Assembly: GCA_951406725.2 (NCBI GenBank)
Contig: OX597828.1
Span: 4,836,001 to 4,900,000 of the forward strand
Reading direction: 5' to 3'
Origin: Octopus vulgaris
Taxonomy: Eukaryota
Length of the DNA stretch: 64,000 nucleotides
This document shows positions 2,684 through 59,567 of this stretch, piece by piece (position 1 is the stretch's first letter; every line of letters begins with the position of its first letter). A program made the position numbers and the translations under genes. The notes beneath the pieces are model-generated. The model was not told the DNA's origin, ran no database searches, and saw only the letters and a list, made by a program, of their open reading frames with translations.

Positions 2684-4130
2684 CATACATCTATGTGTAT
2701 ATATTTGTGTTCGAAATGGTTGTTTTCGAAATAATTTATTCAATGTTCAGTTCTTAGGTATTGCTTTTTAACATTTATAGATGATTGTACTCCATTATAT
2801 AAATCCTTGTATTTTGGGAGCTTCAGTAAATGAAGCATGGGAAGAATTAAAAATTTGATGTACAAGTCTACAACTGCAAGCAGTGAAACATTTTCCCTAC
2901 CGCTCCACCGATTCTGGCATTTCAGAGCTAATCAGTCTTGTATGGCTGTTATACTTCAAACCAAACATGATGTCTATATATGTGTGGTACATATTTTCTA
3001 TTAGCTGACATGATTATTTGTACGTATTTCTGTTTGTTAGTAATAAAACATATCTACAGATATAAAACTGCCTTCCTCTCACAGAAATTTATTACATTTT
3101 TTATATTTTTTCTTTTTAAAATATATTTAACTCGACGAATCTGAAATTCAAAGTGTCTCCTCTTTCACAATTTTAAACATATTCGAAGATTCCAGTCTCA
3201 TAACAATTCAACTTTAAAATCGTTAAGAGTAATTAACATATTGTGTATCTTCTAGTAACATTTCCCTGATTATCTCTCTACTGATCACGTCCAGGTACTT
3301 GTATACGTGACATTATTTATAAGACTGTCCCAGAAGCATTTAATTAATGAATTAGGAATTTGCTTTTCGCCGACATGATTAGGTTGAGCTTCATTGATTA
3401 TAACCTCTTCAATCTATCTTTATTGCAACCATTAATAGCTGTCATGAATTAAGCAACATTTTAATCAGACCATTTTCTCACACAGTCAACTTCATCCTCA
3501 TGTTCCTATTATCGACCATGTCAGGTCATACTACGAAAATATGGCTTCACATTCGTGACACCATTTGAAATACGCTTTATGAAGACTATGAAGTATCTGA
3601 AGCTCTTTAACTAGATTCAGAAGGAGACATTCTATAATAATAATTGATCGGTTTGCATGAAATTAATTAGCAATATCGAACATAATTATTATCGGTATAT
3701 AAAATCACATCAACAATAGACTTCGCAAGAAATATATGATTTTATTATTACTGAAGAAATATATAGAAATATTTTTTTTGTTTTTTATATGATAAGGGTT
3801 CCTCGAAACACCTGCGAAAAATCTATTGTTCATACGCCTATCATAATTATTTAACTGATAAATATAATCATAAATATAAGTATCATTGTGATATTGTGTT
3901 TATTGTTGATGTTGCTTAAACCATATTAAATCTCTGAGCGAGAGTTAAACAGTAACAGTATGAGATCGTAAAATATATTTGCCAACTAAATGTGGCGGTG
4001 CCATAGAAGACGATCCTACCGTTGTTTTTAGCCCCAAGAAGACATCTCCTCCAGCTGGCTAACTACAAACTGCATCCGATTAGCATTTGTGAATGGATGT
4101 CATCGTTCCCATCTCTAACCTTACTTGATA

Positions 4131-4174
4131 CACACAGACCCGGGTTCTTGGTAGTTACCCGTCTTCAGTGCATG
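4131..4174 (-). ncRNA. Minimal type I hammerhead ribozyme, one A lost from the GAAA box
   Basis: Minus strand CATGCA-CTGAAGA-CGGGTAACTACCAA-GAAC-CCGG-GTC-TGTGTG. Stem I has 6 bp including two G-U pairs, stem II is GGT/ACC, stem III is palindromic ACCCGGGT. Confidence 0.7.
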
Positions 4175-4605
4175 ATAATCACTAGCTAGTGTTGAAAACT
4201 CATTCATCTCGAAAAATAATATATGCTTTTGCAGCGACAAATTGTCGCTGATATCAAAAACGGAGAAATAAGCAATTTTAAATCTCTGAGCGAGAGGTAA
4301 ACAGTAGTAGTGCGGAATCGTAAAATATATTGAGCGATGACCTTTGTCCGCAAATAGTAATCCTACTCAGTGTGTCGTTAGCCAGCTGATAGAGATCTCT
4401 TCCAGGGGCTAAAAACAACAGTAGCATCATCCTCTATGGGACCGCCACATTTAGTTGGCAAATATATTTTATGATTCCGTACTGTAAGTGTTTACCTCTC
4501 GCTCAGTTTATTTCTCATTTTTCTAGATCAGCGACAGTTTGTTGCTGGAAAAAGTATATAGTATTTTGTGAGTGGAAGGAGTTTTCATTACTAACTGGTG
4601 ATTAT

Positions 4606-4650
4606 CACACACTGAAGACGGGTAACTACCATGAAACCCGGGTCTGCTTG
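4606..4650 (+). ncRNA. Minimal type I hammerhead ribozyme with intact core
   Basis: CACACA-CTGAAGA(4612-4618)-CGGGTAACTACCAT-GAAAC(4633-4637)-CCGG-GTC(4642-4644)-TGCTTG. All core positions are canonical with a GUC cleavage triplet; stem I has two mismatches in this copy. Confidence 0.8.
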
Positions 4651-5174
4651 TATCACGTAAGGTTAGAGATGGGGGTGTATCGTTAGCCAGCTAGAGGAGA
4701 TGTCTTGTTGGAGCTAAAAACAACAGTAATATCGTCTGGAACCGACACATTTAGTTGGCAAATATATTTTACGGTTGCTTAAAATCTTTATTATTTACAC
4801 TGTCCAGAATTTGCAGCCAGTACTCAGCTACGCATAACCCACACGCTGCGTACGCGCACGCACATACACACACACACGTATGCCTACATAAATATGTGCA
4901 TATATGCACACGTATATATCAAAGAAAGAGAGTGAAAGAGAGAAAGAAAGTAAGACAGACAGAAACTAGATTAATAGACAGATGTGCGTAATTTTTGAGT
5001 TTGTAATTGTAGTTTATTAATGTTTATCGGTTTATATCGTTTGTATAAAACGTCTACTTGCTTATAATCTCCATGAGTATTTTTGCCTGGTTTGTTGAGA
5101 TTTGTGTTAGCGCAGTTTTTGTTTGTATTTTGAGTTGTAGTAAATCTGTAGACTACTGTTTAATCTTATAATCT

Positions 5175-11147: not shown

Positions 11148-11577
11148 TCCTTTCTACCAAAGGCACAAAGCCTGAAATTTGGTTAGGAGGGGACTAGTCG
11201 ATTACATCGGCTCTGGTGTTTCACTGGTACTTAATTTATCGACCCGAAAGGATGGAAACCAAAGTCCACCTTCGCTGAATTTGAACTCAGGACATAGTGA
11301 CGGGTGAAATACCGCTAAGCATCTCATCCAGCGCCTTTTATGATAATAATAGTAATAATAAAAATAATGGTTTCAAATTTTACCACAAGGGCAGCAGTAC
11401 TCGAGGTGGGGCTGAGTCGATGAAATTGATCCCGGTGATCAACTTATAATTATTTTATCGACCCCGAGAGAATGAAAGGCAAAGACGACCTCAGCGGAAT
11501 TTGAACTCAGAACAAAAAGACAGACGGTCAAATTTTGCCCGGCATGCTAACGATTCTGTCAGCTCACCGACTTTTGC

Positions 11578-47824: not shown

Positions 47825-48627
47825 CTTCCTCTAACGCACTTCTGACAGCTCTGCACTCGTACTGGAGACATACAATGGCTATCTTATATAAGTATGCAAA
47901 ATATATTGAATTGCATTATAAGTATAATAAGCCCTGTTGTTTGGAGCGGTGAACATAGATTATTGGTGCAAAAAAAAGAAAACAGAGCGCTTCGACCACA
48001 TAAAACATATGTACAAAAATAAATACCAAGCCGTCTCAGAAATTACACGGGATCTATCATAAATGTAATGTTTATTTACTTTTTATTTAAACAATAACAT
48101 GTAACGTGATAATGGTGTAGTCATCTAATTTGAGATGTATTTTGTTTTCAATTTTCATATTGAGAATGTTGCTACATTAATTTCAAGATTAGCATAGATC
48201 TATGGTTGCTCTAGTGAATTTAAATATGCCTATAGCATGACCGTTCAATCTAAATGATACCAGACAAAGTCATATGTTCCCTGAATAATATAAACCCAGA
48301 TGTTTACGGATACAAAATGAGGGACTGTGCAGCGGAAATAAAGAAGATGCATCATATGGTAAAACAATGGTAAAAGAATTCCGTATCAATTTCCTTTGCG
48401 TGGAACTCTTTCTGCTCTGAGATACACTGAGGTCAGGATAAGTGTTTTTGTACATCACCTTATATCACACACGGAGTACTTTTTTTTAGAAGCTCCGAGG
48501 TAGCTATAAGGGGATACACAACGTCTAACGTCTGAGAACACTGAATCGTATCGTTGAAACAGTTGTAAGCAAATGAAATTGATTACGTAAATCATATAAT
48601 ATGTGTCTATATATATATATAGAGAGA

Positions 48628-49088
48628 GTAAAATCTATTTACTAACGTAAAATGGCAATCCTACTACGTTGGCAAATAGATTTGACGCTCTAGTACTGTT
48701 ACAGCTTACTTCTCGCTCAGAGTTTTAAAACTAATTGCTTTCGTCTTTACGAGATCAGTGCTTGTGTGTCGCTTTGAAAGTATATCACTCGAACAAGGCC
48801 TAGCGTTGCTATCTCTAGCTAACGGTAATCATGTGCCGATGACGAGAAATTATCCAGAAATCAAGGTCCGCGAGTACTGTTTAAGTTGTTTGAGTGGAGA
48901 CATTAACTCAGTTGTTCGAAGCATAAGCATGCAGCTGTGTATCAGTAGTCAGCTGGAAAAGATGTCTTCCGGGGGCTAAAAAAAGGTAGTAACATCGTCC
49001 TGATCAGGACAGACACTGTACATTGGCAAATAGATTTTACTCTGTAGTACTGTACTGCTTGCTTCTCGCTCAGAGATTTTTAAAACTA
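48628..49088 (+). mobile_element. Second locus of the ~350-bp hammerhead-bearing tandem unit
   Basis: TTGGCAAATAGATTT...CTCGCTCAGAG..TTTAAAACTA at 48669 and 49023 (period 354). Shares CAGCTG...GATGTCTT...GGGGCTAAAAA blocks with 4380-4770. Degenerate hammerhead at 48833-48871. Confidence 0.75.
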
Positions 49089-56348: not shown

Positions 56349-57224
56349 CGTATACATATATATGTACATATTGTATAAGTATATGCTGATGTGTGTGCGT
56401 GTATGATAGTGTCTAAATAGATAAAAAGGAAGAAAAATATATATGTGATGATAGAATGTTGGGCAAATTGTATCTCACTAAACTACTTTAATTAAACATT
56501 TCTGATACGAAATTGCAACTCAATTAAGAAAATATTACTCTTAGAAAATATCACTTATTTTACGTCCATCTATCCTCCATACTTACCTTAGCAACTATTA
56601 CATCAATAATTCTCTTCTTTTTCCTCTTTCTCTGCTGGCATCAATTGGATTATAGACCAATTCTAACATAATTACACAGACCGGTTTATTGAATATTATC
56701 GATTATATATCAGGCAAGATTTTAACATCTGAATCCAAGCGAAATCAAGCTAGAAAATGCCTGAAGCAATCAGAATTATACACAAAAGTCTTTTTCCTAT
56801 CAGGTGTTTCGTTCATTTTACTATTCTACTACATTGATCAACAATTGTTATATCCAATTAAGTTATTTTAAGAGAATGAAGCATCTTAACATGAAATGGC
56901 AATGTAATTAAAGTTAGTTCTGAAGCATTTGTCTTAGATTATTGCCGTTCGATCTAATTACAATCCGTTGGTTCTTTTAGTAACTTTCGTGTTCCTACAG
57001 GAATGTTTCCTTTCATGGTTTAGCTGACATCATTCATGCACCATCTCTCTTCATATCATCTGATGTATTATATAATGCTTTCCGACGTACCATTGATTTT
57101 CTATACAGCATGTACATTTTTCTATAAATTTAGCGCCGTGGAAATGCCTATTGTTAGATACATATAAATATAATGACGATGTAAATGATGATAATAATGA
57201 TAATAATTATATTTATAATAAAAT

Positions 57225-57739
<515 letters not shown>

Positions 57740-59567
57740 CGGGTGGATCGCTGCTTTATACAGCAACATCGGCTCGGTGATACGGGTGAACGGTCACTTT
57801 TCGGAACCGTTCGACATATCGCGTTCGGTCCGCCAAGGTTGCCCTCTCTCCTCTCTCTTGTACATATTGACTCTCGAGCCATTACTGCGCAAGTTGGAGG
57901 CTTTGAGGGGTATCCCGCGCGATCTAGGAGGCGGAAACAGCGTGTCTGCCTATGCCGACGACGGCCTGATTGGCGAGACACTAAACGAGTACGAAGCGGT
58001 GACAGGGGCAAAGATTAACGCGGAAAAGTCTGTGGGCTTGCAACTGGGCACCTGGAGAGGCAAGCCCATACCGTCCAACAGCGTCGTAGGGCGCTGGACA
58101 GATTGACTCACTAAACTGCTCGGGGTCTGGTTCGGTCCGGACCTCCAGGTGGATAAAAACTGGGAAGAGGTGACGAGCAGGGTGGCATGTCTCACCCAGA
58201 AATGGGCCGAGAGGAAGCTGTCCCTGAAAGGTCGAGCGGAGGTGGCGAATGCGTACATCGCATCCGTCATGTATTACCGCTTGACCGTCGTCCCTTGTCC
58301 CAACCGCTGGTTGGCCAAGCAGCTTGGCCCAAGCTGGTACGCATGCTCTTCGACTTTTTGTGGAAGGGTCAGGTGCCACTGGTCAGGCGATCCATCTGCT
58401 GTCAACGACCGCTGAACGGAGGCCTTGGAATGCCGTGGTTACTGATGCGCAGACATGCGCTCAGGCTGCGACATCTCAAGCGTTTCCTAGACGGTGAACA
58501 GGTGTGGTCGTCCTTTGTCAGACGCGACTTTCCGCAGCTCGTCTCTTTGACAGAGCTGCAGACCTGGATCAAACGTAGACCGAGAAAGGGCGCTTGGCAC
58601 CTCGAGTGCCGTCAAGCTCTCTCCGCCCTCCGCCAGGCGGGCAATGCGATCGGTTTCAGCTCCACTCTAGCGTTCTATAGAGGGTTAGTAGAGGAAAAAT
58701 GCGACGACGTTCTCGGGGAAACACTAGGCGTTGACGATAACGAACTGAGCGGTCTGTTCGGAAGGACTTTCGGGCCGGGGCCAATGGATAATTTCCAGAG
58801 GTCGCTCGCTTGGCAGTGTTACCGAGGGGCTCTGCCTGTTCAGGATAGACTCTACCGGCACGGAAGTGCCGTTAGCCGGGCCTGCCCGAGATGTTGCCAG
58901 GACGACGAAACCGTTCTACACGCACTCGTCCAGTGCCCGAGTATTGCTGAACTATGGGTTTATATCGAACAGCTACTGTCACGTGTAGGACGGATTCGGC
59001 TATCAGCCGAATCCATAGTGAAGATTGCCCCGCCGACCCCCTTTAACAAGGAGGGCGAGGCCGTTTTCTTGTGCCTAGTGGCTGTGGCAAAAGAGGTTGT
59101 ATGGTGGACCTGTTTGAAAGGGCTAAAGTCAGACACTTTCCTCTTTGGTCAAGGCCTCATCAACTTTTTCAAGTTTCACTTGAAAAGGAAGATGAGATTA
59201 AGAGAGGAGAGTGCTGTCCGATAGCAAGTTTTCTGAAAGGTGGGTGAATTGTGCGAGAATGGCCAGTATAAATGGACCAATTCTCAGGTTTCGCCTGTGA
59301 TTGAAAAAGGTTTTATAAAAAGAGAAAGGGGCTCTCTACCCCCCTTTTGACCAGGCTCCCGTTGGCTTTTATGGGGGTTTTTCCACCAGGAACCTTTCGA
59401 AGCGCCTCCCTCTATTGGGAGATTTTCGTTGTTATATTATTTGATTGTTACACTGTTTTTACACGATTTTTTCACAAACGGACAAAACCCTTCGTGACCT
59501 TTCGTCCTGTTTTGTCCCTTTATGTTTTCTAATCATATGTATCAGCCCTTGTGGCCAATAAAAAGAA
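57740..59567 (+). mobile_element. 5'-truncated L1/Tx1-type LINE (RT, zf-RVT/CCHC, 3' UTR, AATAAA, (TAT)n tail)
   Basis: RSVRQGCPLSSLLYILTLEPLL, VSAYADD, CPRCCQDDETVLHALVQC; AATAAA at 59557-59562. One stop (58104-58106), a frameshift near 58320, and an in-frame deletion right after YADD relative to the 21750 copy. Confidence 0.95.
58187..59224 (+). pseudogene. Longest ORF in the window (345 aa): C-terminal part of Tx1 ORF2, not a host gene
   Basis: LFDFLWKGQVPLVRRSICCQRPLNGGLGMP and CX2CX8HX4C are L1-clade ORF2 features; the first ~48 aa are out of the true frame. Confidence 0.85.

Follow-up and report, generated by a model that had tools for sequence, protein, structure and literature searches.

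The stretch of Octopus vulgaris DNA analysed here, hereafter the window, comprises 64,000 nucleotides of GenBank assembly GCA_951406725.2 (contig OX597828.1, positions 4,836,001 to 4,900,000). At 3923-4773 it contains a 352-bp non-coding unit that forms two back-to-back arms, one on the minus strand (3923-4331) and one on the plus strand (4332-4773), inverted relative to each other (blastn E 1e-124) and joined 5'-to-5' at 4331/4332. A second, related locus lies 44 kb away. The features of the two loci are the following:

3911..3920, plus strand: left target-site duplication GTTGCTTAAA, 10 bp, identical to 4774-4783
3923..3966, minus strand: 44-bp tail of the type left by Penelope-like elements (PLEs), confined to the outer end of the minus arm; the last position of the plus arm, 4773, corresponds to 3967 in the alignment
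3924..4275, minus strand: unit A2, a full 352-bp unit read from 4275 to 3924, with hairpin, hammerhead, 3' region and tail
4131..4174, minus strand: hammerhead A, with 6/6 pairs in stem I (two of them G-U), CUGAAGA, a 3-bp stem II and a CCGG loop
4232..4250, minus strand: 8-bp hairpin CAGCGACA/TGTCGCTG (z -3.3, 0/200 shuffles)
4276..4331, minus strand: A1, the final 56 bp of a preceding unit, forming the 5' end of the minus arm as a partial tandem (48/56 identical to A2)
4332..4507, plus strand: B1, the 3' half of a unit, forming the 5' end of the plus arm (142/175 identical to A2)
4508..4773, plus strand: B2, a unit that has lost 13, 36 and 5 bp in three deletions and stops 44 bp before the tail end (227/264 identical to A2)
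4529..4547, plus strand: 8-bp hairpin CAGCGACA/TGTCGCTG with one G-U pair (z -3.8, 0/200 shuffles)
4606..4650, plus strand: hammerhead B, core complete (CUGAAGA 4612-4618, GAAA 4633-4636, UC 4643-4644)
4774..4783, plus strand: right target-site duplication GTTGCTTAAA, copy of 3911-3920
48626..49088, plus strand: sister-subfamily locus, 70-72% identical
48830..48874, plus strand: hammerhead-like motif C (CCGAUGA ... GAAA ... GUC)

The original prediction had assigned the minus arm a 352-bp period, which is borne out by the recurrence of CTGAGCGAG at 3934 and 4286, and had described the inverted arm as about 50 bp shorter per unit; the latter has a period of 300 (TGGCAAATA at 4456 and 4756), its unit being shortened by the three deletions in B2. 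Its description of the unit as tandem holds for the head-to-tail junctions, three of which lie within the window, but the minus arm comprises only 1.16 units and the plus arm about 1.4; Tandem Repeats Finder did not report the 352-bp unit. Unit length is 352-354 bp across both loci, stops interrupt each unit in all three sense frames, and the hairpin proposed to be kept in both arms is found in each. Pairwise identity among the pieces at 3923-4773 is 81-86%, indicating that the insertion is old. Circular folding gave z values of -2.0 for unit A2 and +0.5 for unit C2. The donor-like word GTAAGG lies at 4657-4662, 3' of the hammerhead, and is found in both arms; PLE terminal repeats are described as sometimes containing introns (PMC4209133), and three runs guessed as RNA held no joint supporting splicing at this word.

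The second locus begins with an inverted arm of 25 bp (48626-48650), which stops at a tail-less point, and continues into about 1.2 units ending in a tail, giving arms of 25 and about 425 bp. Its period is 353-354 and (TA)n flanks both sides. Motif C has 5/6 pairs in stem I, with one A-U to G-C swap, and 2/4 in stem II, and its CCGAUGA may be a subfamily letter rather than decay.

Several other features of the window were recorded. A near-perfect hairpin at 2396-2499, its arms about 45 bp long and its loop short and A/C-rich, is single-copy in the window, has only sub-threshold miRNA-type matches in Rfam and may represent either a MITE or a hairpin giving rise to small RNA. Dispersed copies of a repeat of about 100 bp, SINE-like, 73-80% identical and often adjoining (AAT)n, occur at 11200-11340 and at least nine other places (8497, 11434, 11721, 13254, 16855, 17095, 18783, 19339 and 19499); we take it to resemble octopus SINEs. 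Matches to RVT_1 and zf-RVT mark a remnant at 57222-59224, where the reverse transcriptase (RT) and zf-RVT matches at 57.7-59.2 kb look like a LINE and not a PLE; similar broken frames lie near 21.4-23 kb and 23.4-24.1 kb.

Each strand carries one hammerhead only, at both loci in the window. The GAAAC core that had been attributed to each arm is complete in the plus arm, whereas the minus arm reads GAAC, the GAAA of hammerhead A being shortened by one A; judged by its letters, hammerhead A, with its predicted cut after C4137, is probably dead. Hammerhead B has 4/6 pairs in stem I and 3 bp in stem II, with a predicted cut after C4644. Stem III is palindromic, as had been stated, and reads ACCCGGGT. 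A type I hammerhead descriptor composed after the motif had been seen (core, at least 4/6 pairs in stem I, at least 3 pairs in stem II, palindromic stem III) gave a single match in the 64 kb, at 4606-4650, and any match at all in 1 of 300 Markov simulations; a loose hammerhead pattern alone was at chance level in the window (10 matches, 7.6 expected). Searching Rfam, a check that the original prediction had suggested, returned no hammerhead match at three settings, including E 10 on 3900-4800. Monomer fold prediction folded 0/3 local motifs as hammerheads, pair covariation over the three local copies only was equalled or bettered by shuffles in 281/500 cases, and two motif scans of metagenome contigs gave no match.

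The hammerhead had also been called minimal, a claim that does not survive: helix I of 6 bp, helix II of 4 bp and helix III of 2 bp plus CCGG are canonical sizes. In the minimal hammerhead (min-HHR) of PLEs as defined in PMC4209133, helix III is reduced to its core, helix I has 4-5 bp and helix II 6-8 bp, and we rejected this assignment on helix size as given there. An extra nucleotide after A9 is common to the octopus motif and the min-HHRs of that source.

Relatives of the element were sought among contigs of public runs matched at a minimum of 80% identity. Four probable DNA runs, under four organism labels, contained 2177, 2678, 1969 and 1453 contigs matching the stretch, nearly all of them inside the element. 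The majority letters of this family give stem I as CACAC(A/G)/TGTGTG, followed by CUGA(A/U)GA, an unpaired C, stem II GGGU-AACU-ACCC, an unpaired A, GAAA and stem III AC-CCGG-GU ahead of the cut C, a sequence predicted to form a type I hammerhead in which stems I and II are both paired. The stem I that the original prediction had restored from a consensus of the local copies reappears in the contig majority, which has T at 4647 (97%) and G at 4648 (81-92%), the positions on the other arm being 4171/4172; C at 4631 (83%) restores stem II as GGGU/ACCC.

In run X5 (418 contigs on 4508-4690, variants of at least 8%) the fixed core varies less than the sequence around it: among the variants listed, 0/12 core positions are polymorphic against 28/97 others in 4539-4647 (Fisher p 0.023), although p becomes 0.12 should one further X5 variant fall in the core, and CpG-type decay, which the core cannot show, swells the non-core variation. 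The outcome that would have spoken against the proposed family, a core kept no better than its flanks, is thus not what the contigs display, a result of moderate strength (p 0.02-0.12). At the free position N7 run X5 has A in 43%, T in 47% and G in 10%, loop II varies (4624 in 44%, 4627 in 21%), and the stem II changes among those listed are C to T, yielding G-U pairs. Runs X18 and X21 each have one contig in which loop III is altered to 4638 T and 4641 A at matching depth, so that the palindrome is kept.

Depth differs strongly along the unit. Summed contig depth climbs from about 45 in unique flank to tens of thousands in the element, and in X5 the hammerhead reaches about 16,000 compared with about 50 in unique flank, a rough figure that gives no copy number; the 3' part has 10-20 times deeper contig cover than the hammerhead part. 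As a rough guide, these values point to putative relatives in the hundreds where the hammerhead part is concerned and in the thousands where the 3' part is. Given this deeper 3' cover, and given that 21% of X5 contig matches on 4508-4690 continue into unlike sequence, a share of the relatives may represent the termini of longer elements.

The element bears marks of insertion as well as of repetition. A 10-nt match such as that between its flanking duplications was reached, by the same test, in 2/6442 random non-microsatellite position pairs. The arms point outward and end at different positions of the unit, the minus arm being 44 bp longer, and the second locus has the same tail offset. The tail is confined to one end at both loci (44 bp at 3923-4773, similar at the second), and the PLE pattern of a partial tandem with an inverted 5'-truncated arm is present at 2/2 loci. 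PLE insertions have been described as partial tandems that include an inverted, 5'-truncated copy and bear, on one side, a tail of 30-40 bp (10.1101/2021.04.23.441226), than which the octopus tail is slightly longer; according to in vitro work reported in PMC11167929, the PLE tail corresponds to the sequence separating two internal RT start sites, and the PLE protein cuts AT-rich DNA on both strands. Target duplication, one-sided tail and 5'-to-5' inverted arms are PLE-type insertion marks, which were absent from the original prediction.

Family similarity ends at 3923, where 24-34 contigs per run have loose ends, whose consensus leads into the unit start in 4/4 runs at 55-58% agreement; the tail-to-start joint itself (3923 to 4508) is seen in other copies in 2, 0, 2 and 3 contigs across the four runs. 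The inverted junction 4331/4332 is spanned in each run (4/4) by one contig of 401-411 nt with 4-8 differences, from which it follows that the insertion predates the split of the four organism labels: it is common to them at about 98%, and its own units have drifted to 81-86%. Three runs guessed as RNA, which may hold DNA, contributed 15, 10 and 6 contigs on 4508-4690, all less than 95% identical, and one contig from these runs contains the tail-to-start junction.

Loose ends also occur at 4012, 4025, 4474 and 4720, where groups of 10-33 contigs diverge into other shared sequence, one of them carrying the palindrome AACCCTTAAGGGTT; as a side reading, the groups are putative subfamilies, several in number, with different 3' regions or tails. 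In X5, further loose ends at 4595-4598, just upstream of the hammerhead, comprise 9 and 10 contigs, and their consensus, of low agreement, resembles diverged family sequence.

What the 3923-4773 locus can do at present is limited. The original prediction had allowed for a circular RNA of about 350 nt, but with a single, damaged hammerhead per strand this locus cannot release a monomer or a circle, and since hammerheads A and B lie on opposite strands no transcript would contain two sense hammerheads; it was consequently rejected as an active circle source. A read-through transcript of both arms is predicted to fold into a long hairpin, 79% paired.

Taken together, we regard the locus as most probably the fossil of a non-LTR retrozyme, in other words of a PLE terminal repeat in tandemised form, that arrived by the PLE route. 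Non-LTR retrozymes are recognised by a non-coding unit of 150-450 bp that lacks LTR, PBS and PPT, the length here being 352-354 bp; by a type I hammerhead, here that of the family majority, both copies at 3923-4773 being damaged; by head-to-tail arrangement, here seen in the window junctions and in 7 contigs from 3/4 runs; and by many dispersed copies, here 1,453-2,678 contigs per run and the second locus. An autonomous PLE would instead have an adjoining ORF with RT and GIY-YIG domains, which the original prediction had named as the sign of an ordinary PLE terminal repeat (pLTR) and which is found at neither locus: 0/102 frames within about 4 kb of both loci (frames of at least 45 aa, low-complexity frames left out) encode RT or GIY-YIG, and no frame over either locus matches Pfam. 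The proposal of a retrozyme family therefore stands in its non-coding unit, head-to-tail order, more constant core, lack of an RT frame and PLE marks, and falls in the circle-forming capacity of this locus and the minimal motif.

With metazoan non-LTR retrozymes as described in PMC7229834 the octopus family shares a non-coding unit of about 350 bp, GC under 50%, head-to-tail order, many copies, a type I hammerhead (helices I to III of 6, 4 and 2 bp, the last closed by a tetraloop) and a target duplication longer than 4 bp. Units reported there measure 350-390 bp in mussel, and axolotl has Rtz_353 with HHR_Amex2 (Cervera and de la Pena 2020, PMC7229834), whose cleavage is weak in the monomer and improved in the dimer; at the base of helix II, HHR_Amex2 has unpaired U-U where the octopus motif has unpaired C and A. 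Unlike the retrozymes of that account, the 3923-4773 copy is two-armed, has fewer than two units per arm and one hammerhead per strand, is decayed and is known from DNA alone. With the pLTRs of EN+ PLEs it has in common the partial tandem, the inverted 5'-truncated arm, the one-sided tail and an AT-rich or microsatellite target (PMC4209133; PMC11167929; 10.1101/2021.04.23.441226), and, according to PMC4209133, an extra nucleotide after A9, G10.1-C11.1 and a palindromic helix III. It differs from them, as these sources present them, in having no RT/GIY-YIG frame and a period of 352 bp rather than about 3 kb, and the octopus motif has a further unpaired A between C11.1 and G12 (89% in X5), absent from the PLE consensus given in PMC4209133. 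Vertebrate retrozymes likewise consist of a pLTR-like sequence in tandem, with PLE mobilisation proposed (Li, Clavereau and Pollet 2026, 10.64898/2026.07.22.740005); those authors call a copy active where two consecutive units have complete hammerheads, as the units at 3923-4773 do not.

A putative pathway can be set out from these elements. Intact arrays elsewhere would be transcribed, and their hammerheads would cut the multimers to unit length, probably as dimers through the ACCCGGGU palindrome; the unit-length RNAs may then circularise. The protein of an autonomous PLE would place nicks 10 bp apart on the two strands of AT-rich DNA, and reverse transcription would have two fixed start points, separated by about 44 nt and lying roughly 170 and 210 nt downstream of the ribozyme cut. 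Both cDNAs would extend past one full unit, which would make the template a circle or a multimer, and the two cDNAs would join at their truncated 5' ends to give two outward-pointing arms, the inserted copy having since decayed. No copy with two intact tandem hammerheads was seen among the contigs, which are short. More specifically, and tentatively, since this fuller version is possible but short of probable, we suggest a long-lived octopus retrozyme lineage with an unpaired base on each side of helix II, under selection and copied by PLEs from a circle of about 350 nt with two-site priming.

The form of the RNA is where a competing account is strongest. A non-autonomous PLE derivative might move as linear multimeric RNA without any circle, its hammerhead being a passenger or having another role; this is quite conceivable, though we lean against it as a whole. 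It mostly overlaps our best explanation and differs in RNA form, and on that point alone the two are close to balanced. Hammerhead mutants of the Anolis element PAc, the only PLE assayed in vitro, still insert there, and the same study describes no RNA-seq reads ending at the cut (PMC11167929, in its available text); dimers of Xenopus retrozymes were non-cleaving in 8/9 cases, as reported in 10.64898/2026.07.22.740005. Within the locus, A2 and B2 share three minority letters, and B1 lacks the one that can be tested there; its absence from B1 is not predicted by a single circular template and so may speak for the linear form, two independent changes being plausible at such an age. Against the linear form, core, stems and palindrome vary less than the sequence around them, a pattern suggestive of selection for cleavage among the source elements, and the retrozymes of coral, mussel and axolotl have demonstrated circles (PMC7229834).

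It is unlikely, by comparison, that the two loci are ordinary truncated pLTR ends of an autonomous PLE with a duplicated terminal region, the 352-bp period arising without a stand-alone element. Such ends are expected to leave the same insertion marks (10.1101/2021.04.23.441226), the motif fits the PLE consensus CUGANGAH-G..C-GAAAN-palindrome-NUH as given in PMC4209133, and coleoid genomes are described as rich in Penelope elements (PMC8967140). Plain pLTR fragments keep a place on account of the far deeper 3' part and the run-on contigs. However, at both loci the tail passes directly into the unit start with no ORF, this junction recurs in other copies, and the period has survived in subfamilies that are only 70% identical. 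A foldback or MITE-like DNA element, or an inverted duplication of local origin, in which a hammerhead-like motif had arisen by chance, would account for the long inverted arms, the 10-bp target duplication and the lack of an Rfam hammerhead match, but is extremely improbable and was rejected as already largely refuted, since the arms stop at different unit points and so form no terminal inverted repeat, the ends are unequal at two loci (25 against about 425 bp at the second) and the family majority letters restore the hammerhead stems.

The retrozyme class and its proposed link to PLEs are already in print, the idea that PLEs mobilise animal retrozymes having been put forward on grounds of co-occurrence and sequence kinship (PMC7229834; 10.64898/2026.07.22.740005); the survey of Li et al. 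2026 is, as presented there, free of molluscs and argues from these two lines rather than from insertion marks. No cephalopod retrozyme was found in the literature covered, and cephalopods are unnamed in the main texts of PMC7229834 and PMC7761336; the family may nevertheless be catalogued already.

Insertion marks of this kind bear directly on mobilisation by PLEs and predict the RT start points on the RNA. Should the lineage reading be true, two-armed, one-tailed insertions would be a genomic record of PLEs mobilising animal retrozymes. The 3923-4773 copy is dead, and its main addition is that the habit is old.
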